A stretch of 64,000 nt of DNA from positions 1 to 64,000 of the forward strand of contig CAVRAL010000005.1 in the NCBI GenBank assembly GCA_963719085.1. The letters run 5' to 3'. The stretch is from a candidate division FCPU426 bacterium (GTDB lineage: Bacteria; Oederibacteriota; Muellerivitia; Muellerivitales; Muellerivitaceae). This document shows, one piece after another, positions 35,724 to 58,399 of this stretch. The notes beneath the pieces were generated by a model that did no database searches, was not told the origin of the DNA, and was given only the letters and a program-made list of their open reading frames with translations. A program made the position numbers and the translations under genes. Position 1 is the stretch's first letter, and each line of letters starts with the position of its first letter.

Positions 35724-36214
35724 CTTATAATGGTTACAAAAAAATTAGAAGGGAGCCGTACAAGGTCGGAACTATAGAAAGATAAGATACAGCTGATAGT
35801 TTCAACATTATTGGTAAACTCCATCAGTCTGACTTAGAAATTGCTGATGAAATACGTCATATAACAACAGATGTCTAGATTCAACTACAAATGACATTGG
35901 ATAGAGCTATTATAAGCAAGAATCATAGATCTTGATCAAGAAAAGAGTAGCTCCACCACTTGTAAAGATTATCTGATAAATATCAAGATATTCGAAACTT
36001 TAATTTGTTATTGAATATAATTAGAAGATAAAACACCCAATTCACAGTTAAGAATATATTCATTTAATAATCTTCTTTTTCTACAAGAATAAATTCACAT
36101 ATAACAAAGATACACACAACACACACAATTAACTAGAGAATTAGGAAGACGAAAATACATAGAAATAATAATGTACAGAGACAAAAAAGGGTTAATGTTC
36201 ACTGATCAACAATT

Positions 36215-39841: not shown

Positions 39842-41059
39842 TGGAGTGCGTGATATTATTAAAATCAAAACAATTTATATAGACGAAAAGAAACAAAAGG
39901 AAAATAAAAGTTCGAATAAAGAATGGAGAAAATTGGTCGAGGTACTATATCTATATTGATCGTGATCGTCAGTCATAAGTGATCGAAGAACGTATCTATT
40001 GGTTAATTCATACAAAAGACAAAACGTCATTACTATATATCAATTATGCTCTGTTTCAGAGAATATAATGAAGAAAACTATATTCAAACTTAAAATATAT
40101 AACATGCGACTGTCGTAAAACCCAATCTGGAATAATTACTTAATAGATGTCGTCGCTAATAACAACTTTTTTTTTAACCATCTTTCTCATAAAGTACTTA
40201 ACCAGGGTCACAACATCTCCTGATTTTTTAGACTTTTCTTCTGATAAAAAATCTTCTGGATCTAAAACTGCTTTTTAATGTTTTCTCCTAATTTTTATTC
40301 TTTTCATTCTCGATTTTGAAAATTGAAATCGAGTTTCACTTGTTAAATTTGTCACAGTCATTCATTGGACATTGTGCAGAACAAAGCGTTGATGGACAGA
40401 AAACACCAGGCTCAAACCCTTTGAACAGGAGTATCGCTCTAAAATTTTTATAGTGCCTGGAACATTTGCGTACATAATCTACCGATCAGATTTTTTAGTT
40501 GTTTTCGAGCTTCGTTATCAATTTGACAAATTGTATCAATTGAAGTTACCGTAACGGATATAGCTCAACAAACTCCAGGAATCGAATAACGATAAAAACG
40601 CTGTGTAATCTCTCTGACTTAAATACTTACTGTAGCATGCACAGCCTACATCAAAACTAAGCAGTGTCAATAAAGAAGCACTGGCTCCTAATGTCACGGA
40701 TTTTTCCTCACCAGTTCTTACTTGAAAATGGATTATCATGAGCAAACTAGTTATCGGTCTGAAATTCGTGATAGGCTGGTTCAAAATCAACTCCAGCTAA
40801 CCTAGCCGAGGTTAACAGAGCCCGACTTATGAGTCAACTCATCAAAATAGAGAAACCATGGGATGATATTGGCCGAGCATCTTATGTGATATGCACTCAT
40901 CATTCGAGTAGGTAGTCGAAAAAAATGTCTGCACGCAACTTTTGTGATCAGTTGACCATTTTAAAAAATGTCTTTCAATGTGTTTTGTTCCAGGGGCACT
41001 TTTCAGAAAGAAAGTTTTAAAGAAATACGAAAAGAAAACGCAATTATATATTTGTTGAC

Positions 41060-41169
41060 TAGGGATGCAACGGTGACGGTGAGCCACCGGTCACCGGTTC
41101 ACCGATCCACCGGTCTCACCGGTCTATCGGTGGACCGGTGGACCGGTGACCGTCACCGTTGCATGCCTA
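41060..41169. mobile_element. hAT-type MITE (110 bp), same family as 35645-35723
   Basis: Same TIRs, with a perfect 8-bp TSD TTGTTGAC. Confidence 0.93.
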
Positions 41170-41769
41170 TTGTTGACCTTTTCCTATTCGAGTTTGACCA
41201 ATTTAACTCCACGCACGTTATCTTTCTTTTTTTTCTATAGCTATTGCTATTGTCTGCTCTTCAATATATATCTTCCGACAATCAGAATTTTCTCGTTTTT
41301 CTTTTAGATTTTATAGAACAACCCAATTCTTCATTGGTGATCAAAATCATTTCTCAAACAGAACACAGACAAGAAGTTCTTCTCTTTATTCAAAGAATTT
41401 TCTCTTCAAATTCAGTCTAAGATCAAATGCATGCCGATAAAAGACAACAATCCTAGCGGACACTGTGAATTCTAGCCGCGTTTATATTTTGTTACTTTCT
41501 TACAAGGCGTCGTCGAAACATGAAGAACAATAACCGTCTCACTTGTCTTTAGTGCGCTTCCTATCTTGATGGAGGGTTCACTCGAGTGAAACGGTCAACT
41601 AAGGAAAGATATATATATATATATATGTATATTTGTCGTTCGTCCATTTATCTTCAGACTAATAAAACAAGCACGACGTTCATTGTTGTTGTTATTCAGC
41701 TCGATATAAGAGGAAGAAGGAAGGCGTTCAACTGTGTACATCTAATTTTCGTTCATGAGAGAAAGAACA

Positions 41770-42997
41770 ATGTCGACCACCTTCGAATCACTCTGCAACG
41801 ACGTTCTCATGATCATCTTCGAGTATATCGGCGAAGTGAATCTCCTCCTCGACGGTTTTCTCAACCTGAACCAACGGCTGAACTCTGTTCTTTTCGACCA
41901 CCGCCTTCGCACATTCTGGCTGATCATTGCCAGTGACAGTGGTGCTGAGAAGCGAGATATACACTGTCTGAAACAACATCTCCGCTCACTCTGGCTAATT
42001 CAGAAGAACTGGTCACCTTCGTTATTTATTACGACGGTGCGTCTGCCCTCTCTTTGCCACCTGGTCATCTATGGACTCAACTTCGATAGTGTCAAGCTAT
42101 TATTTGCCAAAGCTGAGGATCACTACCCGAATCTAAAGTATTTAGTTGTGAACAACGCAGGTGAGTAGCCGAGACTCTCTCCCATTTTTAACTTAGTTCG
42201 AACCCAGCTCTTTCTCCATAGGTTACACGACAGAATACAAAGATTACTCCGAAACCGGCGCCGCCCTCTCAACTATCGTGTCCAATGCTCTTCAGCTAAA
42301 ATCACTGGCGTCACTTGAACTCACAGTTTACCGCAATCCATGCATTCTGAATATACCTGTCTTGGAACAACAGCAACAGCAATTCACTCTCCAGTACTTG
42401 ACTCTGACGGACCGATTCAAGATCGATAATCTCTTTCTCCTCTGCCAACAGCTACCTTTTCTCAAGCGACTCCAGCTGCGAGCTCAGCTGGGAGACGATG
42501 TATCTAATAATTTTACTCATATTCGTTCCGTGTTTTCGCTGAAGTGCAAGGTAAAACTGAACCTTGAACTAGTCTGGTTGAAGGCGCAGTTCAATCTACT
42601 CACACTGCTCCTTACGAACATGCCGAATCTCTACGACCTATACATTTTTGGCACTACTGCTCTTGACACTGTTCTTCTGATGAAGAAGTACCTTAGTGCA
42701 TACTACTGGAATGACACGCTGCTGGCACAGTTACCACGACTGAGAAAGCTAAAAGTGGATCTGAAGGCATATGGTATGTTGCTGCCTGCTGATGAAGAAA
42801 TGCTCGAACGGGAAATCATCGCTCCGTTTCGAAACGAACAGGAAAAATACCAGAAATTTCTTCTACGATTGTACCCTCGTTGTCTGGGAGAAGGTTATTT
42901 AAGCTACCTTCATTTACAATCTCAACAGAAGACTACTACAACTGGAAGAGACAGCTGGGTTGACGGCGACTACGTGCCAGATATATATATCGGATAA
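41770..42997 (+). CDS. F-box-like / leucine-rich protein (intron 42161-42221)
   Basis: N-terminal FESLCNDVLMIIFEYI F-box-like motif and LxxL-rich repeats. The GT-AG intron joins the two ORFs in frame. Confidence 0.7.
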
Positions 42998-44138
42998 ATG
43001 TAGTAGCTTTGTAGTGGTATAATTTCTAATAAAAATCAGCAAGAAAACTGTAGTAGTCTGAACTAGTAAAACAGAGAAAATGGTCTAGAGCTCAAGAAGA
43101 CCGCCACAGAAATATTTTTCTCCTTTTACTCTCTGCAAAATAAGTAGTACTGCTTGACATTCAACCTTTCTGATCTGAGAACCAAACTCACTTGATCAGC
43201 GACATAGATTTTAAACGAATGTACTGTTCTCTGGATCTTTATTTCATGATTAACATAAGTGGTTTCAAAAAACACATGGTTTGCAACCATGGCGAATAGG
43301 AACTAAAGCAAACGCTTGTGCTGTGTGGCTATTATTCGGGTGTGAAAAATAAGAATGTGTCGTACAATCGATGCCCACATGAGCAAGACAATGATTGTCT
43401 GCGCTCGACATTAAAGAAAACGAAATGTGAGGTGAGAACCCATGAGTTCGGAGGACGACTGAAAATTAGACAACAACTGCCACTGCTCAAATTTTTCGAA
43501 GCTAAACCAGGAACTTGCTTTCTAATCAACATTTTCTCACTCGATGGACGTATATGGGCCAATGAAGCGAATTCATGCCACAACAGAGACCGTCAGGACG
43601 ACGTTTTTTCTGTCCCGTCCCGTCCCATTTCTCGCAGGAAATTTTCTTGTCACATCGAGATCAATCATCACTTTTTGCTAACACATTGCCTCTCTACTTG
43701 GTTATTGTTTCCTCATTGAAGTCAAATCTTATCATTCATTTTCACACACAACCTGCACAAAAAAAAACTTGTCAATCATTGCAGGAGAAAAGACCATGAC
43801 TTTATATTCCGGGCACATCGAAGAAGATCATTTTCGAGTGAAGCTAATCGAAGGAGCACGGCGCTGTCCACTTCAGATAATGAAGAATCTATCTAGAAAT
43901 AAAATATAAGAAGAATTTTTACTAGCATTATTTAAGTGGATGGACAAAGCTAAATATCACAGATGTTTAACAGCAATAATATCAGTATTCTATTCCTCCT
44001 CCTGTATTAATAGTCATAAGACGTATTTATACATTTCTTTTCTTTCTATAATAAAAGAGCACGTGCACATACACGTGACTTTTTTCTCAATAAATAGTTG
44101 ATAAATAATAATCGATTATTTATTTTCCTCAACGAAAA

Positions 44139-45890
44139 ATGAAAAAGAGCTCAAAATGTTTTATGGATCCAAAGGAAAAATTGGTTAGTCATGAAGCACT
44201 TGAAGAATACAATAAGCAAATACGAAAAAAAAATAATTCTGGTGAAAAACGTTCACCACCACCTGATGATGATGGCATTAACGTGATTAGCATGGATAGT
44301 AATAGTTACCAACTGTCAACACCACAAGAAAAGAAGAAACCAAAGATAAATAGAGATTTATTATTAGTGAATAATTCTCGAAGTGGTAATCAAGGATTGG
44401 TACAACATCAGGCATCAAATGGATATAATAGCAGTAATGTGCAACAAGATGTAATTAATATATCGAACCAAGCACTATCATTTACAATTGAAAATAATTT
44501 CGCACCAGTGAAAATTGAATGCTCACCCCCTTTCCAACATCGTGAAGAAGCAAAAAGATTTATTGTGAATTTTTTCAAGGTTATAAACAATGAATTTCGC
44601 AAAGAATATCCAAAGAATCAATAACCGTTAGGTTTCCATCATTGGTGGATAGATACAGGTGGTAAAACATTATATGGTGTCACGAATGATGTCGATCTTT
44701 ATATCTATTTATGTGAAATCAAAAATTATCGGAACGAATCGACAATATCAAAATCGAACCAAATCCACCGAATCGACTTCCACCCCAAAACACAGTCATT
44801 ATTAAATTTGTATCAAATGAGATATGTAAAGAAGATATATCAAATGAGATCAAAAATTAAATATCATCAAGATTTGTAGTCGACGATATGATGGAAAAAA
44901 TGAGATCAAATAGTCGACATATCAGACTAGCATTGTATCAAAAGGATGACTATATTAAAATTATAAATGATGGTAAAATTGCATTACAAGGACAAATATT
45001 CGAAGTAGAAGAATATCTTCCGCCTCCAAAAATACTCATATGTTTTAAATACAATAAACCTGGTCATGTGAAGAAAACATGTGAATCACCTGTTGAATTA
45101 TGTCGAAGATGTGGCGAAAACAGAAATGATGGTAATAAACATAGTGAATGTAGTATCAAGTGTCGCCATTGTGACGGTGATCATATAGCGACAGACTGTA
45201 AATGTCCCTTGATATTAAAATTTCGGCAAGAACTACTTAATCGATTAAAACTGATCGAAATAAATTACCACCAAATATTAAACTTTTTATTCCGGTCGAC
45301 TGCAGAACGACGGGTGATCGAAATAGATACTTAACTCCTGTGAACAACAACGAAATTCAAAATCTTGTTCCATCTCAGCCTCCAATTATGAATCCATGGT
45401 TTGACAAACAATGCACAAACAATGAAACATCGTCTACAACTGACGCTGGTCAAATAGTGAAGGTCTTGCAAATGAGTTGCAGGAATGTAAAAAGAAGTTT
45501 GAGATTGAATATGTGAAAATCAAAAGTTCCTACGATACGCTAATGAAATCAATTCAGCAAGCATGGCTCATGTTGCAATAACAGGTTCAAGCACAAAACC
45601 AATATTTGTCACTCATGTCAACGATGATCAAGGACAATGTAGTAGCAATGAACCAACTATATAACACCGATAATAACGACATTCAATGAAATTATCAAAA
45701 TAAAGCTTGATGGAATAGACAGAAATAAAATAGAAATGTCTCAAACACTTATCAATTCGACATTAAACCATATGAAGAATTTAAATGATTCATATATTAA
45801 ACATGAGCAAAATCTAACAATGATCATGAATAAACAGGTGACAGTGTTTGAAACGGCAATGGACTCCTTCTTTCCGCCGATTAATGTGAA
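44139..45890 (+). pseudogene. Degraded gag-like ORF1 of a non-LTR retrotransposon
   Basis: Three tandem zinc-knuckle-like motifs (CFKYNKPGHVKKTC, CRRCGE...HSEC, CRHCDGDH...C), with multiple stops and frameshifts. No RT follows. Confidence 0.7.
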
Positions 45891-46242
45891 GTTGGTACAT
45901 GCGCGGCTTTGTTAAGTTTTTCTGGAGATTGTTATTCAAGCGTAGTTAATTTAACCAATACAGAATATGTAAAAAAATGTACTTCGAATTGGTTCTTTTG
46001 GTCTTATTCACTTAATAATATTATATTAATTATTGAAACAGAACTTACTCAACAACGTCATGATTATACAATTTCTCTTGATAATGAATGTATAGTGGGT
46101 GCTATTTTACATGTTTATCGAATCTTTAATAATCAAGGAACTGATGTAACAACGCGAGATAAAACACTTATAGAATATTCCGATTCAAATTATCAAATTA
46201 TCCGGTTGGTACATAAGTTCTGCACGTTTTTTTGTTCACCAA

Positions 46243-47101
46243 CAAAGGACGGGGGTGCATAAGGTCGAGCTGTTAGTTCATAGTGGAGTCGACGCAGAAT
46301 TTTACGGCGAATCTTTTGGTAATAAAATATAGCCTTTCTGAACGATTCTGGGTCACTTATACTCGAAATACTGAAGATGGGTCATGGCATGCCTCTACGA
46401 GAGCGGTACGAAGGGGCGAATTTTTCGGCGAAAAAAAGTTCAAGAAAACGTTTGAAACATACATTAGTCGACTCAGTTTTTGATGCTGATTCCAAATATG
46501 ATGTTTATTTGAGATCAACTGAGGGTTCTTCTGACCGAAAACCATGGAATATCAGTCAAAAATGTCAAAAATCAGGTCTCAAAAATAGTATGATTAGGAT
46601 TTGGTCAAGTGGCCCACTTTTTTAGATCCTAAAAAGTAGCTAGTTTTGTAGCCCTTCAAAAGCTCTATCGAATGGCATACAAAAGAATTGGGGTGGAAAT
46701 ACAGTTGTAATTCATATATGATAACAAAATGATAAAAATCTTGTTTTTTATACATACTGAACCTATTGTTTGATGTTTTTGACCTATTGGTCAACTTTTT
46801 TGGATTCTTAAAAATAGTCAGTTTTGTAGAGCTTAAAAAGCTCTATCGAATGGTATATAAAAGAAATGGGAAGAAAATATAATTGTAATTCATATATGAT
46901 GAAAAAATGAGAAGAATCTTTGAGAGTGTTATTGACTAATTAATGGGCCCTGATGGCACCTAAAATCTTATAGGAATACATTGTATTTAGCATCAAAATG
47001 ATCAGAAAGTCATAATCTATCAATTTATGTATGAATCAATTAGTTTTAATAGTGAAAATCAAAAGGGGCCAAAATACGTCCTTATGCGCCCCCGCCCTTT
47101 G
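46243..47101. mobile_element. Non-autonomous DNA transposon with 22-bp TIRs
   Basis: CAAAGGACGGGGGTGCATAAGG matches the reverse complement of CCTTATGCGCCCCCGCCCTTTG with 2 mismatches. There is an internal direct sub-repeat (AAAAGCTCTATCGAATGG at ~46657 and ~46836) but no clear TSD. Confidence 0.7.
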
Positions 47102-47253
47102 AGAGCATACATGCCACACAGCTGAGAACAGGAAGAAAAAAAATGAACAGTTAATGAGAAAATAAACAAGAAGAATTTCAGCTTTTGTCGAATCAGAGTA
47201 AGTTTCGCCAAACTATAGGATCATGATCAATTTCTACTTCTGAAGAATCATCA

Positions 47254-47898
47254 TCAGTTTCTACTTCGGTAAGACCATGATCGATTTCTACCTCTATAGG
47301 ATCGTCCATAAATTTCTACTTCTATAGAATCATTTAGAGTATTATGATTGTTATGTGAAAAACGACGACCGCCTCCGAGAAAGAATATATCAAAGGCCAC
47401 GCCCAAAAACAGAAGTATCCCAGTACCATGAAGAAATGTATTTACATTATAATAAAAACAATTATCACGATAAATACCATTTGTAATAAAGACGAAGATA
47501 AATACGGAAATGATCCATAAAACCCAGACAAGAATACGACTGTACTTTCCATTCACCGAGAAAAGTTCTCGAATAGTATAGATCTGTAGTATGAATAGGG
47601 CTTATTTCAGATAAATAGGGCTACCCAGAAGATAATAATGAGTGAGACAGTTTTTCAGTTGTTCATGTTTCGTTGATTGTATAGAGCAAAGACAATCTTC
47701 ATAAGGAATACCACAAAGTAAGTCAACTGTAATTAACTTCAAATTTGGCGTCCGCGAACGAAGAACCGATTCATAAGCGTCGTCTATAGTCTTTTGAAAT
47801 GAAGCGTACAAAAAAATGGTGCTGTTAAAAATGATGGAAACAAAAATTTGAGCGCGAAATGATTCTATGGCGAGCGGAATGCCAAATTTGATTTCCAT
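47254..47898 (-). pseudogene. Uncharacterised membrane protein ORF interrupted by one in-frame TAA (47602-47604)
   Basis: The two track ORFs are in the same frame, 45 nt apart, and contain hydrophobic segments. Confidence 0.45.
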
Positions 47899-48840
47899 AT
47901 TGATATTTGTTCGATTTCAATAATAATCCAATTGAAAGAGTATTCAACTAATCTAATGAATATATATCTGAAATAAAACATGAAAAATATTTAGAGACGA
48001 TTGATAAAACAAAAGATGCTTTAATGCATCAATCAGAATCAATATTAAACCTAATTCTCATTTATCTTTAGCCTTTTTTCTTGTTTAACGTTCAAATATA
48101 AATCGCATAATGAAAAATAGATAATACGAAAACCAAAATGACAAGAAAAGAATGTTGTTCGCGATCGAATATCGATATTAGCAGAATAATTTGATGTAAA
48201 TATTAAAGGTAATAGCAAAAAAATCTATGAAATTAGTTGAAAAAACTAATTTCGTTTAGAAAATTTCCATCGAAAGAGTAATACATACACACTGATTTTA
48301 TCCAACTCTAGGTGAAAAGACATGCCGTAATTATTCGATTGGAATATATTGTCATCGAACACATTATAAACATAATTCTTATACATTGTAGGAAAAATAA
48401 TAAGAATAAACTATGAGATTTTTATCGAAACTTACTTTTATAGATCCAGATTTATGTAATACTCAAACAACTAATGCACATCTATATTTTATGTTCATTT
48501 CATTTAGATAAAAAATAAGAAGGTTTAACTTGATATATTGACCATCAGTTAACATCTGCTTATTTAAACCGCTTTAGATTGCCTTTAGAATAGAGTTATT
48601 CATCATTTTAAAGATGATAAAACATTAAATGATCGATATCATTGAAAGATATGGTAAAAAACAACGTCAAGAAAAAGAAAAATGGAGCACAATAAATACA
48701 TATTTCGTTTTGAAATATTAACAGATTCTCATCACATTAAAGTGAAGCAGTGTGTATATGTTTCATCATGACAAATATATTTTCATAAGAAAAAGAATGA
48801 AAATGCTTTAAAATTGTTAACGAAGAAATATTATGTAAAA

Positions 48841-49882
48841 CCACCACCAAAATGCCTTCTTCCAATAATTTGGCGGACATGGCGACCGCCTTTTCGTTGT
48901 CGCCCACCATCACGGGAATAATCGGGCTCTCGCCCGCCGGAACCTCAAAACCCAAACCCTTTAACCCATTGCGGATTTTGTCCGCGTTCTTCTTTAGCTT
49001 TTCCACCCGGTCCGGTTCCTCTTCCAAAACTTCCAGGGCGCCTAAAGAGGCCCCGCAAACCGAGGGCGGCAAACCCGTGGTATAGATAAAAGTCCTGGCC
49101 TTATTTAAAAGGATGTCGGTCAGCAATTTAGAAGCGCAGACAAATCCGCCGATGCTTCCCAAGGCCTTGCTATAGGTTCCCATGACCACGGTTGGAAGCG
49201 TCCTCAAGGGAAAATGATGGGCCGCGCCGCGCCCGCCCACCCCTAAAACCCCCGTTCCATGGGCGTCGTCGATTAAAACCATGGCGTCAAACTCAGCGGC
49301 CAAATCCATGATGCCTCCCAAAGGAGCCAAATCCCCGTCCATGCTGAATAAAGAATCGGTCACAATCAAGCGCCTGCGGTAATTGCGGGCGCGTTCCAAA
49401 CAGCTTTTTAAATCATCCAGGTTTAAATGCTCATAGACCAGCAGTTTGGCTTTCGACATCCGGCAAGCGTCGACCAAGCTGGCGTGGTTGAGCCGGTCGC
49501 AAAGCACCGCGTCCTCATCCCCCACCAGCGCCGAAACAGCGGCTAAATTGGCCATATAACCCGTGGGAAAAGCCAGGCAGGATTCGGTCCCTTTAAAGAG
49601 GGCGGTTTTTTCCTCAAGCAAATCATGGATGGGAAAGTTGCCCGACACCAGCCGGGAAGCCTGCGCCCCGGCGCCATAGCGGTCCAAAGCCTGGTGGGAC
49701 ATTTTGAGCACGCGGGGATGGTCGGATAAACCCAGATAATTATTGGCGCAAAAAAGGGTGCAGTCTTGCCCGTTGACGCGGGCTTTCGCGCCGCCCAAAA
49801 GATCGACGGTGCGCAATTGACGCTTCAGGCCTTGGGCTTCCCAGTCCTTCAACTCTTGTTCAAGTTCCGCCATCCAATCCAA
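48841..49882 (-). CDS. bioF: 8-amino-7-oxononanoate synthase, 3'-truncated at the eukaryote/bacterium junction
   Basis: NNYLGL, ASRLVSG, DRLNHASLVDA, DSLFSMDGD, DDAHG and GTYSKALG motifs. The reading ends at EEGILVV, without the usual IRPPTVP...RLR tail. Confidence 0.9.
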
Positions 49883-49892: not shown

Positions 49893-50357
49893 TTAAACGA
49901 AAGTGAGTTCGAAAAAGTACTCGGCGTCCGGTTCGTCGTTGTAACGGGGAATCAATCGGAACCCGTATTTTTTGAAAAGGTGGATGGCCGCGGGGGACTT
50001 GGAGTTGGTGTCCAACCGAAGTTTTCTAAACCCGAAAGTAGGGGCGCTTTGGATGACTTTTTCCAAAAGCATCTTGCCTTGGCCCTTGCCGCGTTTGTTC
50101 GAGTCGACGAAGAAGCGCTTAATCTCGCCCGTGCGGTCCTCAATCCAGCGAAGCGCGATGGTGCCGACGATTTTACCGTGATCCCGCAAGACCCAAAAAT
50201 CCCCGGTTTTCTGGTAGAACTCCGGGATGCGCCGCAGGTCCGATTGGCCGCCCTCGAGGTCGAGCTCAATCCCGATTTCCCGGAAAGGGCCCTCCAGAAA
50301 GGTTTCCAGTTCTTTTTGAAATTCCACGCGATAGGGTAAGCATTCCATAGGTTTCAA
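49893..50357 (-). CDS. GNAT-family N-acetyltransferase
   Basis: EIKRFFV, RGKGQGK acetyl-CoA motif and AIHLFKKYGF. Confidence 0.9.
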   Translation of the reverse strand: MKPMECLPYRVEFQKELETFLEGPFREIGIELDLEGGQSDLRRIPEFYQKTGDFWVLRDHGKIVGTIALRWIEDRTGEIKRFFVDSNKRGKGQGKMLLEKVIQSAPTFGFRKLRLDTNSKSPAAIHLFKKYGFRLIPRYNDEPDAEYFFELTFV

Positions 50358-51553
50358 CCTTTAGAAAAAATAACCGCGCCCAACTGTCCCCCGATGCCGT
50401 ACGACAGGGACATCACATGTTCCCAATTTCCCGTCACGCCGCCCGGCGGCACATGCCGCACCCGGCATTCCGGATCAGGGTCTTTCAGGTTCCGGGTCAC
50501 CGGAGCCCGCCCGCGACTGACAGCCATCGCCGTGAAAACCGCTTCCACGCTGCCGGCCGCCCCGAGCAAATGGCCCGTGGCGCCTTTGGTGGAACTCACC
50601 CAAACCGAACGCGCGCCAAAAACCTCAGCGAGCGCTTCGGACTCTACTTTATCATTGGCCCGGGTCCCAGTTCCATGGGCGTTAATATAACCGATATTTT
50701 CCGGTTTAAGTCCGGCCCGGCTTAAGGCCCGCTGAATGACCCCTATGATAGAACGACCCCGGGGTTCCAGTTCCAAAATTCCATCCCCGTCGGCGCCCAA
50801 GGCCCAGCCCGTCATCCGGACTAAAGGAGTCGCTCCCCTCCCCAAAGCCGAACTTTCCGACTCTAAAACCATCGCGCCGCACCCTTCCCCCAATAAAAAA
50901 CCATCTCGGCAAAGATCAAAAGGCCGTCCACCCTGGGGATTTGAGGTCAAAAGCCCCATTTGGGCGAAACCAGCCAGAACCAGGGGATGGATGGAAGATT
51001 CGGTGCTGCCGGCTAAAACCGCCCCGCAGGATCCCCGCTCAATCCAATCGGCGGCCTGGATCAAGCTGGCCAGCCCGGTGGCGCAAGCGGCCGAGAAAGA
51101 CAAGGCGGGACCTTTAAATCCAAGCTGTTCCCGCAGGAAAATTCCGGGCGTGGAGGGAAAAAAATCTTGAAGAAAATTGAGCGGGGGCGCCTGCCCCCGC
51201 TCCAAATCTTCCCGGGCCCGAAGCAGGCTTAAGAGCCCGCCTTTGCTGGAAGAAAAAGTCGTCCCGACCGCCGCGGGGGAAACTTGGCCCAGCGCGGCTT
51301 GGTCCCAAGCCTCCTGGGCCGCCAACGCCGCCAATTGAAGGGAGCGGTCCCGCGGCGAGGTCCCCCCAGGCGGCGTGAAGGACGGCACCCGGGCCGCTCT
51401 TGGCGATTTAAATTTCAGCCACTCGGGGCCGGATAAACGCTCACCTTCCGCGCCCATCCCCTCCATTAGCGCATCCCAGCTTTGGGCCGCGTTCAACCCC
51501 ACGGGGCAAACCACTCCCCAACCCGTCACCACCAAGGCCGCGTTTACAGCCAT
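50354..51553 (-). CDS. fabF: Beta-ketoacyl-ACP synthase II-like (FabF family)
   Basis: Cys-His-His triad in AACATG, NAHGTGT and GHLLGAAG, plus RPFD...DGFLLGEG. Confidence 0.85.
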   Translation of the reverse strand: MAVNAALVVTGWGVVCPVGLNAAQSWDALMEGMGAEGERLSGPEWLKFKSPRAARVPSFTPPGGTSPRDRSLQLAALAAQEAWDQAALGQVSPAAVGTTFSSSKGGLLSLLRAREDLERGQAPPLNFLQDFFPSTPGIFLREQLGFKGPALSFSAACATGLASLIQAADWIERGSCGAVLAGSTESSIHPLVLAGFAQMGLLTSNPQGGRPFDLCRDGFLLGEGCGAMVLESESSALGRGATPLVRMTGWALGADGDGILELEPRGRSIIGVIQRALSRAGLKPENIGYINAHGTGTRANDKVESEALAEVFGARSVWVSSTKGATGHLLGAAGSVEAVFTAMAVSRGRAPVTRNLKDPDPECRVRHVPPGGVTGNWEHVMSLSYGIGGQLGAVIFSKG

Positions 51554-52272
51554 CCCGGAATCCGGGAATCCAAATTAAAAACCTGGCCCGAAATGGACCG
51601 GCTTTGGGCCAGCCAAAGCATAAACTGCTCCACTTCGCGCAAATCAGTCGTCGCGGGCAGAAGATGCCGGGAGCGGATCGCCTCTTCCGCTTCCGGCGTC
51701 AACCCGTCCGATAACCGGGTTTTATGAAAACCGGGGCAAACCACGTTGACCCGGATATTTTTAGATCCATATTCCCGGGCCAGGCTTCGGGCCAAACCAA
51801 TCAAACCGGCCTTGGCGGAAGCGTAGGAAACTTGCCCCGGATTACCCGTGGTGGCCACCACCGAGGAAATAAAAATAAGGTGGCCTCCCTGGCGCAGCAT
51901 GGGCTTTAGGCAGGCTTTGGAAATCAGGAAGGAAGCCTTCAGGTGGACGCCTAAGGTGGCGTCCCAATCCGCCTCGTCCACATTCATCACCCGGGCGTTG
52001 CGGGTGAAACCCGCGTTATGAATCACGCAATCGATGGTGGAAAAGCGATCCCGGGTGGCCGTCACCCAAGCGTTCACCTCACCGCTTTGGGTGACATCGG
52101 CTTTGAGGACCAAAAAATGGGGAGTAAGTTTCGCCAGCTGGGTTTTGGCTTCGGCGGCCGAAGCCTCATCCTCATGATAACAGGTGGAGACGGCCCATCC
52201 CGCGGCGGCGAAAGCCCGGATCAATGCCCATCCAATTCCCCGGGTGCCCCCTGAAATTAATAGAACCGGCAT
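51544..52272 (-). CDS. fabG: 3-oxoacyl-ACP reductase-like SDR (FabG family)
   Basis: SGGTRGIG, HNAG, YASAK and VCPGF motifs, with a GGAG RBS upstream of the ATG at 52272. Confidence 0.8.
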   Translation of the reverse strand: MPVLLISGGTRGIGWALIRAFAAAGWAVSTCYHEDEASAAEAKTQLAKLTPHFLVLKADVTQSGEVNAWVTATRDRFSTIDCVIHNAGFTRNARVMNVDEADWDATLGVHLKASFLISKACLKPMLRQGGHLIFISSVVATTGNPGQVSYASAKAGLIGLARSLAREYGSKNIRVNVVCPGFHKTRLSDGLTPEAEEAIRSRHLLPATTDLREVEQFMLWLAQSRSISGQVFNLDSRIPGWL

Positions 52273-52319
52273 CGCCCACTCCAAAAATTAAAATTCACAA
52301 GCTCAATCTTATACGCGTT

Positions 52320-52540: not shown

Positions 52541-52828
52541 TCAACTTCCCCCGGAGAAGGCCTGGGAGAAGAGCGCCGCCAAAGCGATGGTTCCAACCAG
52601 AACAAGGGCCACCAAAACCGCCACCGGAAGCACGACCCAGACTAAAAAGCCGATAAAAAGGCAGGCGCGGCCGACCTGCCGAACCTCCCGGGAATCCTGG
52701 TCATAAAGAAAAAGACCGATCAAAATTCCGCAAAAGGGAATGAAGAGCGACAATCCGTACCAAGCCCATCGGTTGGACGTCACCAGATTCGGTTCGGTTT
52801 GGGTTTTCGCCAAGGAAATTTTTCGCAT
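52541..52828 (-). CDS. Small membrane protein (two predicted TM segments)
   Basis: 95-aa hydrophobic ORF directly abutting the upstream gene. Confidence 0.7.
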   Translation of the reverse strand: MRKISLAKTQTEPNLVTSNRWAWYGLSLFIPFCGILIGLFLYDQDSREVRQVGRACLFIGFLVWVVLPVAVLVALVLVGTIALAALFSQAFSGGS

Positions 52829-53356
52829 TTAAAACACCTTAAACATCAGGCTGAAAAAAACGACCAGCACGGCGAAAATCGAAAAAGGCAAAAACACAAA
52901 AAGAACCGCGGTCCACCGGGAACACCGCAAAACCCGCTCCATGCCCCAGACTTGAAAAAGCACCGTCGTCAGCGATAAAAGTTTGCCGAACCAGCCCCCC
53001 AAACCTAAAAACAGCAACCCCGCCGACGAATAACCCACCATCAGGCGTAAAAGGGAAAAGGGAAGATTTTCTTGGAGTAAAAAAGCGCAAAGCTGGATAA
53101 AGGCGGACCAAACATAAACCCAGGCCATTAAAACGACCGGCATCACCACCAGCATTAAAAGGGTCACCAACGCCACGATCGCCGGCGAACTGCTGGCAAA
53201 AGCTTCCGAGATCCCGAGCTCCAAAGCGATGCAAACACCCGTCAGGGCCGCGAATTCCAAGGCCTTGGGCAAGCTTGATTTTTGAAGGGCTTCGTCAAAA
53301 AAACGCCCCGGCCGCGTGTAAGCCAATTTGACTTGATCGATATAAGCGTTGAACAT
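52829..53356 (-). CDS. Yip1-like multi-pass membrane protein
   Basis: N-terminal RPGRFF motif followed by about five hydrophobic helices. Confidence 0.65.
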   Translation of the reverse strand: MFNAYIDQVKLAYTRPGRFFDEALQKSSLPKALEFAALTGVCIALELGISEAFASSSPAIVALVTLLMLVVMPVVLMAWVYVWSAFIQLCAFLLQENLPFSLLRLMVGYSSAGLLFLGLGGWFGKLLSLTTVLFQVWGMERVLRCSRWTAVLFVFLPFSIFAVLVVFFSLMFKVF

Positions 53357-53417
53357 GGCTTAGAGTTTAACATAAACCCACGCGGGTGAAATGACTTTCC
53401 CGGACGGCGACCGCCTT

Positions 53418-53453
53418 AAAATAAAAATCCCCGGATCCTTTTGAACCCGGGGA
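53418..53453 (-). terminator. Rho-independent terminator
   Basis: TCCCCGG/CCGGGGA stem followed on the minus strand by a T-tract, downstream of the acidic ORF. Confidence 0.7.
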
Positions 53454-53483
53454 CTAAGGCGTTAGGCGGAAGGCGAAGTTGGC

Positions 53484-53891
53484 TTAGGATTCTTCCAGCC
53501 GAGTCAAAGCCTCTTCCCAGGCTTCTTCCATGCTGACCACTTCCCCCTCGGCGATGACTTCGTGCAGGAAACGCTTTAGTTTCGGCGCGTCCTCGACGTC
53601 CATCTCGTTTTCCCGGAGGACTTCGGTCACATCCTCGAGGGTGATGTGATCGAGAATTTCCTCGGCCTCACCCTGGAAAAGACGGCGAGCCTCTATTTTT
53701 TCGACGGAGCTGTTTTTTTCCTCTTCGTCATCATCCTCGTCATCGTCGTCGTCTTCCTCTTCTTTTTCGGCGCTGTCCAGGTCAATGGTGTCCTCGTCGT
53801 CGTCCGCGTCATCATCCTCTTCGTCGGCCGCCGCGTCGTCATCATCCAAATCCTCGATATCATCTTCATCATGATTGCTTTTACGAGCCAA
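53484..53891 (-). CDS. Highly acidic hypothetical protein
   Basis: Probable TTG start at 53891 after a G-rich RBS, then a long Asp/Glu tract and a helical C-terminal part. Confidence 0.7.
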   Translation of the reverse strand: MARKSNHDEDDIEDLDDDDAAADEEDDDADDDEDTIDLDSAEKEEEDDDDDEDDDEEEKNSSVEKIEARRLFQGEAEEILDHITLEDVTEVLRENEMDVEDAPKLKRFLHEVIAEGEVVSMEEAWEEALTRLEES

Positions 53892-53976
53892 GATGAACCC
53901 CCCGATTGGATTTAAGAAGGAATAAACCAAACTTCGCCCCAATGAATACTTCGACTTTAAAAAGAAGTCAAGTGTT

Positions 53977-55737
53977 TCAACTCGGGGTTAAATAACGGCG
54001 GCGTAAATTTTCCCACACGCTTCGGTCCACCAGCTCCACGCCGGAAATTCGGGCCAGGGCCCGGGCCTCAAGGGAAAAATAAGCCGGGGCCATAAGCAAA
54101 CCACGGTAACAAAACTCGGAGGCCATCACATGGCTGAATTCACTCACGATTTCGCCCGGAATTTGAGTGGTTTCGGGGAACTGTTTGGCCAAAACCGCGA
54201 ATTTCCCCCCGATCACGGGATGGGAATGCTCCACCACGGCGATGACCGCCCCGCCGTCGGCCCGGCGGATTTTGGTGATCCGAAACCCTAAGGTTTTTAA
54301 AAAGCGGTCGGTTTCATGCTCAAAATCCAAAAGCGACATTTGGCTCAAATCCAGCAAAAGTCCCTTTTCATCCCCCAGGTTGAAAACCCAGCGCTGGTCA
54401 TAGGCCGGTTCTTTGAGGAGATCTTGAAGACGGCGCCCATCGATTAAATCCACCGCCATCTTCCGGCCGCTGTTCTTGGCTTCCTCGGTGAATTGGCCTG
54501 TCACCAAATAAATTCCCCGCTTGCAGCCCTCTTCCCGGGCCAACTCATCCAATTCCCGAACCAAGTCCGCGTGGACCTGGGCGTTTTCCGGATATTGCCG
54601 GGCCAGGATCATGAATTGCCCCCCTAAAACAGGGTGCTGAAAATCGGCCAACATTTGAAGCGTGCCGCCGGGTATTTTCTTGACCTTCCCCACCTCAAAT
54701 CCCAATTGGGTCAAAAAGGTCTGGGCCAAAGCCTGGAATTCGGACAAAGCGATCCCGCTGAGGGGTTTCTCCCGCTGAGGGTCTTGGCCGCGCGCGGAAT
54801 CTTCCAGCGGCTTCGCTTCTTCCCATCCATCATCGATTTTTTCTTGCTTAGATTCGTAACGAACCTCCAACCGGGGCGCCTGGGCCTTGATGCGCTCCAA
54901 GATCCTGGCGTTCTTGCTTTCTTCCTCGGGAAAAGCCTCCACTTCCATTCCGTCATTGTAACGCAGGTCAAAAACCGCCAGTCCCTTCAAAAGGTTCGCG
55001 TCCGTCAGATGAACCTGGCGGTATATGTCCCGGGTCGCCCGGACGCTTAAAACAGCCCCATCATAAAACTTGGCCTTCCCGCTGATGAAGTTCATCATGG
55101 CGTCAACAATGATGGCCGGCACATTCTCCGAAATGGAGAATCCGGTTTCCAGGATGTGGGCCGTATCCCGCAAGAGTGAATCCCGGAACAACTTGTAATT
55201 CCCGTTCACATCCCCGCCCATCTCGGCGCGGAACATCCGGGCCGCGAACTTGATCCGGGGCACCGTATCAACGACGTGGATGGACTTTATCGCGACCTCG
55301 GGATATTTTTCCTTTAAGGCCAGCCGGAGCAATTCGTCAAAGTGCCCCATGGCGCCCCGGGCCAAGGATTCCTTGCGGGAAATGATGAGGGCCTGTTGTT
55401 GGCGCGCGGTAATCTTATCCGAGGCCGCCTTTTCTTCCCGGTGGCCCGCCATTTTAAAAAGCACGCCCAAAAATAAAACCGTCACGAAAAAACCAAGCCC
55501 CACCGCGTCCATGGGATTTTGCCCGATGAAATCCCAAACTTCCGAAAAAAATCCGCGGATCATGCCCAGGATAAAGCTGTTGAGCATCATGACGAAAACA
55601 AAGAGGACCAGCCCCGCCATCAAAAGGCCGCCCGCTTCCGCCTCCTGCGGGGTGTGCCCTTGATCCGTCAAATGACGTACCACCCACTGGGCGCCGGGAG
55701 TCTTGAGCAAACGTTCCTTCCATTCCGATGGCAGCAT
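53977..55737 (-). CDS. Membrane-anchored protein with two degenerate Mrr-like restriction endonuclease domains
   Basis: Two N-terminal TM segments and two repeats of the Mrr_cat pattern (EFQALAQTFLTQLGF...VRELDE...KRGIYLVTGQFTEEA...VDLIDG and DFEHETDRFLKTLGF...RGLLMAPAYFSLEA...VELVD). Confidence 0.75.
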   Translation of the reverse strand: MLPSEWKERLLKTPGAQWVVRHLTDQGHTPQEAEAGGLLMAGLVLFVFVMMLNSFILGMIRGFFSEVWDFIGQNPMDAVGLGFFVTVLFLGVLFKMAGHREEKAASDKITARQQQALIISRKESLARGAMGHFDELLRLALKEKYPEVAIKSIHVVDTVPRIKFAARMFRAEMGGDVNGNYKLFRDSLLRDTAHILETGFSISENVPAIIVDAMMNFISGKAKFYDGAVLSVRATRDIYRQVHLTDANLLKGLAVFDLRYNDGMEVEAFPEEESKNARILERIKAQAPRLEVRYESKQEKIDDGWEEAKPLEDSARGQDPQREKPLSGIALSEFQALAQTFLTQLGFEVGKVKKIPGGTLQMLADFQHPVLGGQFMILARQYPENAQVHADLVRELDELAREEGCKRGIYLVTGQFTEEAKNSGRKMAVDLIDGRRLQDLLKEPAYDQRWVFNLGDEKGLLLDLSQMSLLDFEHETDRFLKTLGFRITKIRRADGGAVIAVVEHSHPVIGGKFAVLAKQFPETTQIPGEIVSEFSHVMASEFCYRGLLMAPAYFSLEARALARISGVELVDRSVWENLRRRYLTPS

Positions 55738-55834
55738 AGGGACTCTTTCAAGATGCGATTTAAATAACCCGCCGGGAAGCCGATTGGTTTCGAGACGACT
55801 TCATGTTAAAGTCCAAAAACTCCGGAGGCAAGCC

Positions 55835-56530
55835 ATGGATTACGTCAAACGCCTGGAAAAACTGATGACCCGCCTGAGGGCGCCTCACGGCTGTCCCTGG
55901 GACCGCCGCCAAACCCATAAAAGCTTGAAGCCCTATCTTTTAGAGGAAACCCACGAGGTTTTAGACGCCATCGATAAGGGAAACCCGGCCGATCTGCGCG
56001 AGGAATTGGGCGACCTTTTACTTCAAGTTATTTTCCATTCCCAAATGGCCAAGGAAAAGGGTTCGTTCAATTTTCAGGCCGTGGCCAAGACCATCGGCGA
56101 CAAGCTGATCCGCCGGCATCCCCATGTTTTTCAGCGAGCCGGGGGCGTAAGCCGTAAAATCAAAGACATCAATCAAAAATGGGAGCAACTCAAAAGGCAG
56201 GAAAAACCTGAGCGAAAGTCCGCTCTCGACGGGCTTCCCAAATCCCTGCCCGCGCTTCTCCGGGCCCAGCGGATGCAGGAAAAAATATCGAAAACAGGCA
56301 GACCGAAATCAAGCACCAAGGCGCGGATCGACGAGAACTTGAAAATCTTCAAAAAATCGGCTGCCCACAAAAATCGGAGCCGCCAAGAAAAAGCCCTGGG
56401 CGAAATGCTTTTAAGCCTCACCCGGTGGGCCCAGGCCCGGGGTATCCACGCCGAAATGGCGCTCCAAGCCGCGGCTTCCCGTTACGAGAAGGAGTTCAGG
56501 AAATCCGAGCGGCGGATCAAACACCCCTAA
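55835..56530 (+). CDS. mazG: Nucleoside triphosphate pyrophosphohydrolase MazG
   Basis: LRAPHGCPWDRRQT, EETHEVLDAI, EELGDLLLQV and KLIRRHPHVF, with a GGAGG RBS before the ATG at 55835. The second domain is degenerate. Confidence 0.92.
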   Translation: MDYVKRLEKLMTRLRAPHGCPWDRRQTHKSLKPYLLEETHEVLDAIDKGNPADLREELGDLLLQVIFHSQMAKEKGSFNFQAVAKTIGDKLIRRHPHVFQRAGGVSRKIKDINQKWEQLKRQEKPERKSALDGLPKSLPALLRAQRMQEKISKTGRPKSSTKARIDENLKIFKKSAAHKNRSRQEKALGEMLLSLTRWAQARGIHAEMALQAAASRYEKEFRKSERRIKHP

Positions 56531-56718: not shown

Positions 56719-57642
56719 CTATTTTATCTTTTTCACCAGGATCACCCAAATTACCCAGCCCAAAAAGATCATGCCGAGGGTCAAAAGACTGTAGGAAAGC
56801 CATCCGCTGATGGCTTTGGTGGCTTCGCTGTATTCCGACATTCCGCCGATTCCCGCGATCAGATTGAGCGGAAGAAAAACGATGTTGATGATGGTCAGGT
56901 CTTTCAGAAGCCGGTTCATATTGTTATTGATGATGCTGGCCCGGGCGTCCATCAAACCCGAAAGCACCGTGGAATAAATCTCCGCCTGTTTGGCGCATTG
57001 ATGATGCTCAATGATAATGTCTTCCATTAACCCCAATTCCCCCGAAGTGAACCCGATCCTTTCCCATTCTTTATGGAGCTTGGCCAAAACCGTGTTATTG
57101 GCTTCCAGCGCGTCGATGTAGTAAATCAGGTTCTCGCCCAGGGTGAACATCTGCAACAGGTATTGGTTGCCCAACGACGCGTTGAGCTTCTCCTGGATTT
57201 CCCCCGTCAATTGCTTAATGGCCTTCAGATGCCCGAGAAAATGATGGATGGTGTGCTGCAGGATTCGCAGCAAAAGATCCGGAAGCGAGGCCGTTCCTTG
57301 AAATTCTTTTTCCTTAAAAGGAATGACGCCTTCGCTGAGGATGATGGTCAGACGGTTCTTTTGCAGGTACAAACCGATGGAAGAAACTTCCAGTTTAAAT
57401 TGCCGGGCGAAAGACGTGTTATTGGGCCGCTTCCAAATGACGTAAAGATCATCCTGGAGGCACTCCATCCTGGAAATTTCATCCGGATCCAGTGCCGACT
57501 CCAGCGCGTGAGGATCCAAATGGAGATTGCCCAGCAATTCTTTTTTCTCGCCCTCGTCCGGCAGGGTGTAGATCACCACATTGGACTGGGGCCCATCGCA
57601 TTCCATGACCTGGCCGTCTTTTAATTGAAAAAATTCTTTCAT
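56719..57642 (-). CDS. CorA-family Mg2+/divalent cation transporter
   Basis: ALDPDEISR, NNNMNRLLKDLTII and GGMSE (a GMN variant), followed by two C-terminal TM helices. Confidence 0.85.
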   Translation of the reverse strand: MKEFFQLKDGQVMECDGPQSNVVIYTLPDEGEKKELLGNLHLDPHALESALDPDEISRMECLQDDLYVIWKRPNNTSFARQFKLEVSSIGLYLQKNRLTIILSEGVIPFKEKEFQGTASLPDLLLRILQHTIHHFLGHLKAIKQLTGEIQEKLNASLGNQYLLQMFTLGENLIYYIDALEANNTVLAKLHKEWERIGFTSGELGLMEDIIIEHHQCAKQAEIYSTVLSGLMDARASIINNNMNRLLKDLTIINIVFLPLNLIAGIGGMSEYSEATKAISGWLSYSLLTLGMIFLGWVIWVILVKKIK

Positions 57643-57736: not shown

Positions 57737-58399
57737 CTACTTCACTTGATAAAGTTTCTTGTCGGGTAGGGAAAGCGCCGTTAGGAAACCCCCATAAACG
57801 CAGCCCGTATCCAAATTGATCCGGTCTTTGGACAGCTCCACTTTCTCAATGGGCGTATGGCCGTGGACCACCAATTTGGGGGTCGGGCGGGGATCCTGCA
57901 AAAATTTCCGGCGGATCCACAAAAGGTCATCCGCCTCTTGTTGGTTTAAAGGCCTGTCGAGATTAACCCCCGCGTGGCAGAAAAAATAATCCGGCGTCTC
58001 ATAGGTCAAAACCAAGGCGTTTAACAGTTCCACATGCGTATGAGGGATATAGGACTGAAGCAAAACATGGGCCCCTTCCCCCCGAACCTCATCCAGTTTT
58101 TCCTGGGACACATAGGACTGCAAAGTCTGATGCCCGCCGTTTAAAAGCCAATTGGAAGCCGCCAAGGAATTGGGCGTCCCCAGCCAGTCCAGCAGCATCT
58201 GCTCGTGGTTTCCGCGCAACAAGTGCCAATTGGGCTTCTGCTCCTTCACCAAATAATCTAAAACGCCCTTGCTGTCCGGACCGCGGTCGATATAGTCCCC
58301 TAAAAAAACCAGCTCATCTTCCGGCTTCACCGGCAATTGAGCCAAGAGTTCTTTGAGTTGTTCCAAGCAGCCGTGAATGTCACCGATGGCGTATATCAA
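57737..58399 (-). CDS. Metallophosphoesterase (PrpA/PPP-like Ser/Thr phosphatase family)
   Basis: GDIHG, GDYIDRG, RGNHE, HAG, HGHTP and DTG motifs. Confidence 0.92.
   Translation of the reverse strand: MIYAIGDIHGCLEQLKELLAQLPVKPEDELVFLGDYIDRGPDSKGVLDYLVKEQKPNWHLLRGNHEQMLLDWLGTPNSLAASNWLLNGGHQTLQSYVSQEKLDEVRGEGAHVLLQSYIPHTHVELLNALVLTYETPDYFFCHAGVNLDRPLNQQEADDLLWIRRKFLQDPRPTPKLVVHGHTPIEKVELSKDRINLDTGCVYGGFLTALSLPDKKLYQVK

Follow-up and report, generated by a model that had tools for sequence, protein, structure and literature searches.

A bdelloid-rotifer-like contig that turns bacterial inside a truncated bioF gene is probably an assembly chimera

Background

Does a contig that passes abruptly from animal-like to bacterial DNA, inside a bacterial gene, record a very recent horizontal gene transfer (HGT), or does it bring together the DNA of two organisms that were merely sequenced together? 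The question arises here for bdelloid rotifers, the animals richest in foreign genes, in a window of 64,000 nucleotides whose change of character falls within bioF. Judging from its sequence, we give a probability of roughly three in four to the reading that the contig is an assembly chimera of a rotifer and a co-sequenced bacterium, and the junction at 48840/48841 most likely exists in no living genome. Bdelloid-type rotifer DNA would then have been joined to part of the chromosome of an uncultured bacterium from the same sample, through a chimeric molecule or read or through a misjoin by the assembler, and the two halves would never have been linked in vivo.

The features around the junction are as follows.

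1..48840, no strand: AT-rich eukaryotic (bdelloid-rotifer-like) DNA, by composition, animal-type exons and AAC(3)
47920..48840, no strand: AT-rich, non-coding DNA just left of the junction, by ORF scan and GC
48737..48840, minus strand: spurious read-through tail of the bioF ORF, 34 residues, in rotifer-side DNA
48837..48849, no strand: junction, by the end of homology and the composition change point, with the break at 48840/48841
48841..49882, minus strand: bioF (8-amino-7-oxononanoate synthase family), 3'-truncated, 347 of ~384 codons

Results and discussion

Composition and homology switch at one point

The break is sharp to a few bases, and composition and homology both change there. GC content lies between 0.246 and 0.446 in every 1-kb window of positions 1-49000 and between 0.504 and 0.611 in every 1-kb window of 49001-64000, while 60-nt windows climb from 0.183 (48780-48839) to 0.50 (48840-48899) and 0.65 (48880-48939). 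A third-order Markov segmentation placed the change point at 48837 after training on the intervals 1-45000 and 52001-64000. By blastn against 12 related loci, the alignment reaches 48841 in 8 of them and 48843 in another 3, and beyond it these 11 loci continue on their own; the twelfth, L011, is itself cut short and stands outside this 11-locus comparison. The flip from AT-rich to GC-richer DNA that the initial annotation had placed at 48840/48841 is thus reproduced by GC windows and segmentation, and blastn ends the homology at the same place. Directly past the last shared G, all 11 loci read C[CGT]AT[CA]CG, where the window instead has TTTTACAT.

The sequence runs unbroken through the join, with no N or gap, so some path across it existed for the assembler. 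Moreover, the contig on which the window's RecA is recorded has a length of 226,441 bp and is therefore no short stray piece. Both facts count against a chimera and speak for a real and very recent HGT, in which at least 15 kb with at least 16 genes of an uncultured, free-living bacterium would have been end-joined within bioF to a rotifer chromosome at a double-strand break, the genes undecayed and their composition unchanged. We regard such a transfer as unlikely.

The bioF gene is cut at its 3' end

The minus-strand ORF at 48737-49882 matches Pfam Aminotran_1_2 (6.9e-49) over profile positions 2-331 of 361, and with the match ending there it falls short of a complete PLP-dependent class I/II aminotransferase fold. 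NCBIfam bioF (TIGR00858) was the best among 12 BioF/Kbl-family models, at 402.4 bits over profile positions 2-329 of 365 and below its cut-off of 426.45, a sub-threshold score that goes together with the absent C-terminus. Alignment with eight relatives holds up to V347 (...EEGILVV), after which similarity is gone: the relatives run AIRPPTVPKGTARLRL and the window has VLHNISSLTILK, leaving it ~37 C-terminal residues short of relatives of 383-384 aa. The read-through tail, translated as VLHNISSLTILKHFHSFSYENIFVMMKHIHTASL and a stop, has a counterpart in none of the eight. Together with blastn, this alignment shows that bioF is indeed cut after ...EEGILVV and continues into unrelated AT-rich DNA, as had been noticed from the sequence.

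The join carries no integration signature

A search of 47800-49900 for terminal inverted repeats (TIRs) or target-site duplications (TSDs) returned just short, low-identity, AT-rich matches and neither a TIR nor a TSD, in agreement with the earlier reading. A telomere-type motif that we take to be the Adineta vaga repeat, searched as (TGTGGG)x3 with a tolerance of three mismatches, had no match. Neither the leftover tail of bioF nor the relatives' downstream DNA was found in 1-48840 by tblastx and blastn. The microhomology that had been suggested at the join, CCACCACC, was dropped: the motif lies entirely inside conserved bioF coding sequence (L-V-V), and 5 of the 11 relatives carry it unchanged. 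As ordinary coding sequence, it gives no evidence of microhomology. The longer stretch ACCACCACCA (48840-48849) codes for the same conserved L-V-V.

A switch of composition and homology at one point, with no integration signature, is what the chimera reading calls for. A random breakpoint within a gene, free of TIR and TSD, is equally what end-joining would be expected to leave in a real transfer. Direct reading of the join revealed no adapter, linker or restriction-site palindrome, an observation that counts against a chimera. A further possibility is a chimera formed in vivo and never fixed, by ligation in a few cells or individuals (e.g., during post-desiccation repair) outside the germline. 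It shares the sequence facts of the other readings and would look identical to an in-vitro chimera; nothing is specific to it, and an assembler would rarely base its consensus on a molecule so uncommon, so we hold it to be very improbable.

The left side is bdelloid-rotifer-like

Positions 1-48840 have a GC content of 0.305 and a homogeneous tetranucleotide signature: 11 of 12 4-kb windows correlate with the left reference at r=0.77-0.98, and left windows correlate with the right reference at r of at most 0.27. Animal-type genes split by introns are represented by exon fragments (SCAP, Pkinase, kinesin, CHD5/GET1, and GH18), and a satellite array is also present. The best named relatives of an AAC(3) gene at 3245-4094 (GC 0.36, GC3 0.20) are those of bdelloid rotifers, at 75-79%. 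The side first described as animal-like is thus eukaryotic, as stated, and by the relatives of AAC(3) it is more closely bdelloid-rotifer-like, a taxon that rests on this one gene. Toward the junction, GC is 0.17-0.35 across 48300-48840 (60-nt windows), and the only ORF of at least 60 aa that enters 47920-48840 is the bioF read-through ORF, with its last 104 nt (48737-48840). ESM Atlas look-ups of the ORFs at 47602-47916 (minus) and 44112-44624 (plus) gave no usable match, and Rfam and tRNA scans of the whole window gave 0 and 0.

AAC(3) and a chitinase with GH18+CBM_5_12 are genes of foreign type and older date that already stand in the window, and the neighbourhood therefore tolerates foreign DNA. 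With the bdelloid-like host side, their presence favours a real transfer and counts against a chimera. The reverse direction, in which a bacterium took up 48.8 kb of rotifer DNA, has the physical join in its favour and nothing more. Against it stand the animal genes divided by introns, the satellite array and a GC3 of 0.08-0.20 (three genes) over those 48.8 kb, together with the 11 of 11 relatives reaching the break that continue bioF normally, and we give it almost no credence.

The right side has the character of a native bacterial chromosome

To the right of bioF, the window holds the following genes.

49893..50357, minus strand: GNAT acetyltransferase (Pfam Acetyltransf_1, 1.1e-18); L001 is the sole locus with an ortholog, at 87%
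50354..51553, minus strand: beta-ketoacyl-ACP synthase, FabF-like (Pfam ketoacyl-synt N and C domains; NCBIfam fabF 4.6e-83, under cut-off); single-frame in 11 of 11 matching loci and end to end in the 7 with the whole gene
51544..52284, minus strand: SDR/FabG-like reductase (Pfam adh_short_C2, 7.9e-54), with full-length orthologs
52541..53942, minus strand: three conserved hypotheticals (52541-52828, 52829-53356, and 53484-53942), with no match in Pfam or NCBIfam and with syntenic orthologs in 7-8 related loci
53977..55737, minus strand: Mrr-type restriction-endonuclease-domain protein, 586 aa (Pfam Mrr_cat, 1e-24), with full-length orthologs in 5 loci at 52-56%
55703..56530, plus strand: MazG nucleoside triphosphate pyrophosphohydrolase (Pfam MazG; NCBIfam NF007113, 234.8 bits, cut-off 208)
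56719..57642, minus strand: CorA-like Mg2+ transporter (Pfam CorA, profile positions 9-292 of 292), with a counterpart at the same place in none of 12 compared loci
57737..58399, minus strand: Calcineurin-like phosphoesterase (Pfam Metallophos), with full-length orthologs at 75-86%
58418..60685, minus strand: AsmA/DUF748-family envelope protein (Pfam DUF748 and AsmA), with nearly full-length orthologs in L003 and L007
60773..62017, minus strand: RecA (Pfam RecA, 9.7e-135; NCBIfam TIGR02012, 540 bits, cut-off 325)
62165..62917, minus strand: PIG-L family deacetylase, BshB1-like (Pfam PIG-L; NCBIfam BshB1, 190.6 bits, cut-off 182.5)
63175..63450, minus strand: Cold-shock domain protein (Pfam CSD, 1.2e-28)
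63505..64000, minus strand: phosphate transporter, PHO4/Pit family (Pfam PHO4, 205-350 of 350)

The block measures at least 15.16 kb with at least 16 genes, and since the PHO4 ORF is still open where the window stops, the bacterial DNA goes on past base 64000. Its 16 ORFs are densely packed and all open, 13 of them with a Pfam family, and none shows a frameshift or interruption; the 12 with counterparts in relatives align in a single frame and end to end, MazG over residues 44-273. Because the MazG orthologs align from ORF residue 44 on, the true start is probably near that residue. The right side is therefore as intact as it had first appeared. The order RecA-AsmA-phosphoesterase-MazG-Mrr-three hypotheticals-SDR-ketoacyl synthase-bioF is kept in related loci of metagenome-assembled genomes (MAGs), the GC content of the block (0.538) lies within the relatives' range of 0.49-0.62, and its GC3 is 0.62-0.70 versus 0.08-0.20 in left-side genes.

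Evolutionary rate gave a similar picture. Window bioF is 90% identical to its sister P0002 and 85% identical to P0003, P0004, and L001, and it is as near to outgroups as P0002 or nearer (identities of 85.2 versus 84.0, 85.0 versus 81.8, and 81.3 versus 79.4), with RecA behaving likewise. Its end branch is 0.089, where L001 has 0.12 and the median is 0.14. Neither relaxed constraint nor a rate speed-up is visible in the right block. In synteny, intactness, composition and rate, the foreign part is indistinguishable from the native chromosome of its donor, as a chimera would have it.

These observations weigh against a real transfer. None of the 16 genes displays decay, an intron or amelioration, and branches are not sped up, although a very recent transfer would lack these signs of residence in a host too. 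In addition, a single junction is visible, with the block running off the window. Linkage to metazoan genes on one scaffold, used as an HGT criterion in bdelloid screens (PMC5916493), is present here in the assembled sequence only, and because a chimera presents it as well, it does not discriminate.

RecA is 89% identical to the L007 copy and 76-90% identical to the nearest other clusters; its matches with taxon names are at most 71% identical (Acidimicrobiia, Limnochordaceae). The bacterium's relatives are known only as MAGs or metagenome contigs, which fits an environmental co-inhabitant. A plasmid origin was also considered and rejected, megablast of 48841-64000 against a plasmid collection having returned no match.

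Frameshifts differ between the two sides

The description of the left side as indel-rich stands, with real frameshifts in AAC(3) (at the A-run 3993-3997), in GH18 (near 29773) and in Pkinase (overlapping frames at 4355-4778). The left has at least three homopolymer frameshifts in ~2.7 kb of examined coding sequence versus none in 15 kb on the right, while homopolymer density is similar (12.1 versus 10.0 per kb, counting runs of at least 5). Frameshift density was taken as a stand-in for a coverage step and was counted for neither reading. On the left, a 126-bp satellite has 0% indels, and the 650-nt arms of an inverted repeat are free of homopolymer-length differences; given this self-consistency, the left-side frameshifts may be real mutations.

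Documented chimeras and their bearing on HGT counts

Chimeric contigs of exactly such make-up have been documented and weigh against a transfer: PMC8885841 describes 12 rotifer-plus-bacterium contigs in an Adineta vaga assembly. Those of the L1 hybrid assembly were, according to the same paper, mostly eukaryotic with a bacterial stretch attached, as in the window, and their bacterial parts were recognised as foreign to the animal's genome. They differ in having been flagged by SMRT methylation density, where the window is known from its sequence, and in stretches that the paper calls 'small', compared with a block here of at least 15.16 kb that runs off the window. With a native-looking block, a join free of integration signatures and this documented precedent, a chimera with a co-sequenced bacterium, which the initial annotation also ranked first, is the reading that we favour.

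The Hypsibius dujardini contamination that was read as HGT (bioRxiv 10.1101/033464) is likewise a case of intact bacterial genes in an animal assembly, and in both cases coverage, spanning long reads and expression decide, not gene content. Most contaminant scaffolds there were wholly bacterial, unlike the window, where the bacterial block is joined to animal genes. A per-contig contamination screen would therefore miss the block and keep the contig, because 48.8 of the window's 64 kb (three quarters) are animal. Bdelloid HGT screens that take a metazoan gene on the same scaffold as support, as PMC5916493 sets out, would let the at least 16 bacterial genes of this contig through.

The pace of transfer bears on the same choice. 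In PMC4632278, transfer into bdelloids is described as ongoing, which favours a real event, and as slow, with an estimated gain of 12.8 genes per Myr; by our own reasoning from that rate, it would be improbable a priori to meet 16 or more genes in one block before any had decayed. We therefore keep a real recent transfer as a minor reading, and agree with the initial annotation that it would be remarkable: among the bacterial insertions seen in animals that do not stem from endosymbionts, it would be the youngest and the largest, and a real join would give a rare view of foreign DNA just captured and not yet domesticated, the first step of bdelloid HGT. If the contig is a chimera, as we think probable, trimming and flagging at 48840 would protect gene sets and HGT counts.

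Within the window, AAC(3) provides a comparison for the right block. Both are of bacterial/archaeal type and both are linked to animal genes. AAC(3) is found across bdelloid genera at 75-79% and is ameliorated, whereas the right block is unameliorated, multigenic and in bacterial synteny, with bacteria as its nearest relatives at 85-90%. Wolbachia-type nuclear insertions also consist of multi-kilobase, multigene bacterial segments with abrupt junctions, as the block here would if truly inserted, and their donors live in the germline; nothing, by contrast, links the MAG relatives of the window's bacterium to rotifer cells. These MAG relatives are labelled 'bacterium', 'uncultured proteobacterium' or 'Candidatus Firestonebacteria'.

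Sequence join inside bioF

We put at about three in four the probability that this contig is a chimera, an artificial join of two co-sequenced organisms, with bdelloid-rotifer-like DNA on the left and bacterial DNA on the right. The gene cut at the join is a minus-strand BioF/Kbl-family ORF (48737-49882; Pfam Aminotran_1_2, 6.9e-49, profile 2-331 of 361), for which NCBIfam bioF was the top of 12 models (402.4 bits vs a cut-off of 426.45; profile 2-329 of 365). A protein search scored 7,949 of 8,000 candidates at E<=0.001, the closest being P0002 (90%), followed by P0003 and P0004 (both 85%), and most of the matches listed are 384 aa long. Aligned with eight relatives, the window protein is conserved to V347 (...EEGILVV); past this residue the relatives read AIRPPTVPKGTARLRLSVS... 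until about residue 384, while the window ORF reads VLHNISSLTILK... for 34 codons and then stops.

Among 12 related loci compared at the DNA level, alignment with the window ends at 48841 in eight and at 48843 in three, and sooner in L011 because that locus is itself cut. All 11 loci reaching the breakpoint go on ...G|C[CGT]AT[CA]CG..., in place of the window's ...G|TTTTACAT; as their homology ends here, the break lies at 48840|48841, just where the initial annotation had placed it. Its further idea, that CCACCACC at the join could be a microhomology, did not hold up, since this plus-strand motif pairs with GGTGGTGG, which encodes Val-Val in bioF; it lies wholly on the bacterial side, is exact in 5/11 relatives and is uninformative about microhomology.

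Composition switches at the same place. GC of 1-kb windows is 0.246-0.446 throughout 1-49000 vs 0.504-0.611 throughout 49001-64000, and in 60-nt windows it rises from 0.183 (48780-48839) to 0.50 (48840-48899) and 0.65 (48880-48939). Third-order Markov segmentation, trained on sequence distant from the junction, set the change point at 48837. Tetranucleotide correlation to the left reference was 0.77-0.98 in 11 of 12 left 4-kb windows (the outlier, 1-4000, holds a satellite array and reached 0.56), and correlation to the right reference was at most 0.27 in all 12 and 0.92-0.95 in the three full right windows. Left-side continuity up to the junction is supported by composition, the final 900 bases before the join being non-coding.

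The bacterial block and its relatives

Sixteen ORFs were examined in 48841-64000:

48841-49882, minus strand, bioF, cut at the junction
49893-50357, GNAT
FabF-like KAS
FabG-like SDR
three hypothetical genes
Mrr-domain protein
MazG
56719-57642, CorA
phosphoesterase
AsmA/DUF748 protein
60773-62017, RecA
62165-62917, BshB1-like deacetylase
cold-shock protein (CSD)
PHO4/Pit transporter, extending past the window end

A Pfam family is present in 13 of the 16. Twelve could be matched to counterparts among the relatives that were fetched, and each of these aligns along its length in a single frame; for CorA, the BshB1-like deacetylase, CSD and PHO4, intactness was judged from full profile coverage alone. 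Counterparts of MazG align from residue 44, so the start listed for this ORF is probably too early. Gene order from RecA to bioF is collinear with L003-L010. GC3 is 0.62-0.70 in the 11 genes measured, overall GC (0.538) falls within the relatives' 0.49-0.62, and no plasmid record matched the block. The block shows no sign of past residence in a eukaryote.

A genome-collection scan matched 586 stretches, 528 of them encoding relatives, and the best 80 of these 528 were kept. L001, titled 'bacterium', has 85% identity; L002-L011 and L020, titled 'bacterium', 'uncultured bacterium', 'uncultured proteobacterium' or 'Candidatus Firestonebacteria bacterium', have 69-71%; and the remaining loci among the best 80 have at most 51%. 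A quick maximum-likelihood bioF tree of the window and 32 of the 80 loci (L001-L010 and 22 others of our choice) placed the window sister to L001 (SH-aLRT 86), the pair being nested in an 11-sequence clade with support of 100. The window's end branch was 0.089 vs a median of 0.14, and its bioF is no more distant from outgroups than its nearest sister P0002, as also holds for RecA. The window RecA is P0242 (406 aa), found on a single 226,441-bp contig and in a 90% cluster (n=19); other RecA clusters have 76-90% identity to it, and the first taxon-named matches are Acidimicrobiia and Limnochordaceae at 68-71%. The donor bacterium is a member of an uncultured lineage.

Several smaller features of the block were recorded. 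GNAT, with a counterpart in L001 only, and CorA, with one in 0/12 loci, look like lineage-specific insertions within an otherwise conserved gene order. A 41-nt inverted repeat (52373-52413 / 56602-56642; 93% complementary) occupies two intergenic gaps, its arms flanking the three hypothetical genes, Mrr and MazG, and may be a REP-like intergenic element. RecA has a long C-terminal extension (ORF of 414 codons vs a 321-position core model), and several relatives span only 79-82% of the window protein. The deacetylase scores 190.6 bits vs the NCBIfam BshB1 cut-off of 182.5, suggesting that the bacterium might make bacillithiol.

The animal-like side

Stop-to-stop ORFs and Pfam revealed exon-sized fragments of animal-type genes, and a foreign gene, on the left side:

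kinase (Pkinase)
SCAP: N-terminal, sterol-sensing and WD40 parts
CHD5/GET1, two copies
kinesin
29311-30139, GH18 chitinase with CBM_5_12, a bacterial-type module
3245-4094, aminoglycoside 3-N-acetyltransferase, AAC(3)

The taxon assignment of this side comes from one gene, AAC(3), 45 kb away from the junction. Its top match overall is P0122 (98%), and its best taxon-named relatives are bdelloid rotifers, namely Didymodactylos carnosus (79%, partial), Rotaria sordida and R. sp. Silwood1 (78%), and Adineta steineri and A. vaga (75%), with bacterial and archaeal matches from about 53% downward. Because its bdelloid relatives stand at 75-79% and its GC3 is 0.20, AAC(3) reads as an old, ameliorated foreign gene, in contrast to the right-hand block of the same window. 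The opposite direction of transfer, a bacterium acquiring rotifer DNA, we regard as extremely improbable.

Repeats are varied here. At 1-2092 a 126-bp unit is repeated 16.6 times in tandem with 98% identity; minus-strand ORFs 165-983 and 946-2055 stay open through this array as 42-residue repeats, and one 127-bp copy shifts the frame. A segment of some 1.5 kb is duplicated (13490-14960 / 17890-19350; 91-100% identity, about 4.4 kb apart), each copy carrying a CHD5/GET1-like gene, with a one-base indel between copies near the coding 3' end. A near-perfect inverted repeat (32652-33307 / 33404-34061; 650-nt arms, 96-nt spacer) has on either side a copy, in direct orientation, of a membrane-protein-like ORF (31996-32294, 34884-35253). 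Overlapping-frame ORFs in 44112-46625, some 2-4 kb left of the junction, show a CCHC zinc-knuckle-like motif, returned no Pfam or usable ESM Atlas match, and may be a decayed retroelement.

The left side had been called indel-rich, and frameshifts do occur in three genes. AAC(3) has a +1 shift at an A-run (3993-3997) relative to P0122, with 100% identity over the 33 residues past it. The GH18 chitinase is split across three overlapping frames. Around an A-run near 29773, profile part 243-305 and the next, 296-317, occupy overlapping ORFs that differ in frame; one or more of the splits resemble the loss of a single base in that run, and an intron might explain the overlap at about 29520. Pkinase has profile parts 158-196 and 186-263 in overlapping frames (4355-4778), and SCAP_N (11387-12008) may be a fourth. 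The satellite has 0% indels across its 16.6 copies, and the only differences between the inverted-repeat arms are one 2-bp indel and two substitutions, homopolymer lengths agreeing throughout, so the frameshifts may be genuine mutations. Homopolymer runs of at least 5 are similarly dense on both sides (12.1/kb left vs 10.0/kb right), and equal consensus quality should therefore give right-side frameshifts too. The left-right contrast was given no weight in judging between chimera and insertion.

Chimera or recent insertion

As first noted, neither a terminal inverted repeat nor a target duplication marks the junction, our repeat search returning only short AT-rich chance matches (best 28 nt at 71%). 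Neither the missing bioF tail nor the DNA downstream of bioF in relatives has left any piece in 1-48840; the join has no N, adapter-like insert or GATC, and the whole window has no RNA families or tRNAs. The (TGTGGG)3-type repeat, which we take to be a telomere-type repeat of Adineta vaga, was absent with up to three mismatches allowed. An artificial join and a very recent, unchanged end-joining insertion fit this anatomy equally well, and it is the priors that separate them.

A real, fixed insertion by end joining, too recent for any change, is compatible with the junction, and we consider it unlikely. Eyres et al. (PMC4632278) estimate bdelloid foreign-gene gains at 12.8 per lineage per million years, and we infer that at this rate it would be extraordinary to find 16 or more genes together and undecayed. 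That a rare chimeric molecule arose in vivo seems very improbable. For an artificial chimera there is a likeness in the 12 rotifer-plus-bacterium chimeric contigs of an Adineta vaga assembly (PMC8885841), which have the same make-up as this contig; chimeric contigs in general exist and are likely rare, according to the ContScout paper (PMC10831095). In the tardigrade case, coverage, spanning long reads and expression were the deciding evidence (bioRxiv 10.1101/033464). In Nowell et al. (PMC5916493), same-scaffold metazoan gene linkage was recorded as support for HGT candidates and scaffolds were discarded only when at least 95% of genes were foreign; the present contig would get through both filters.
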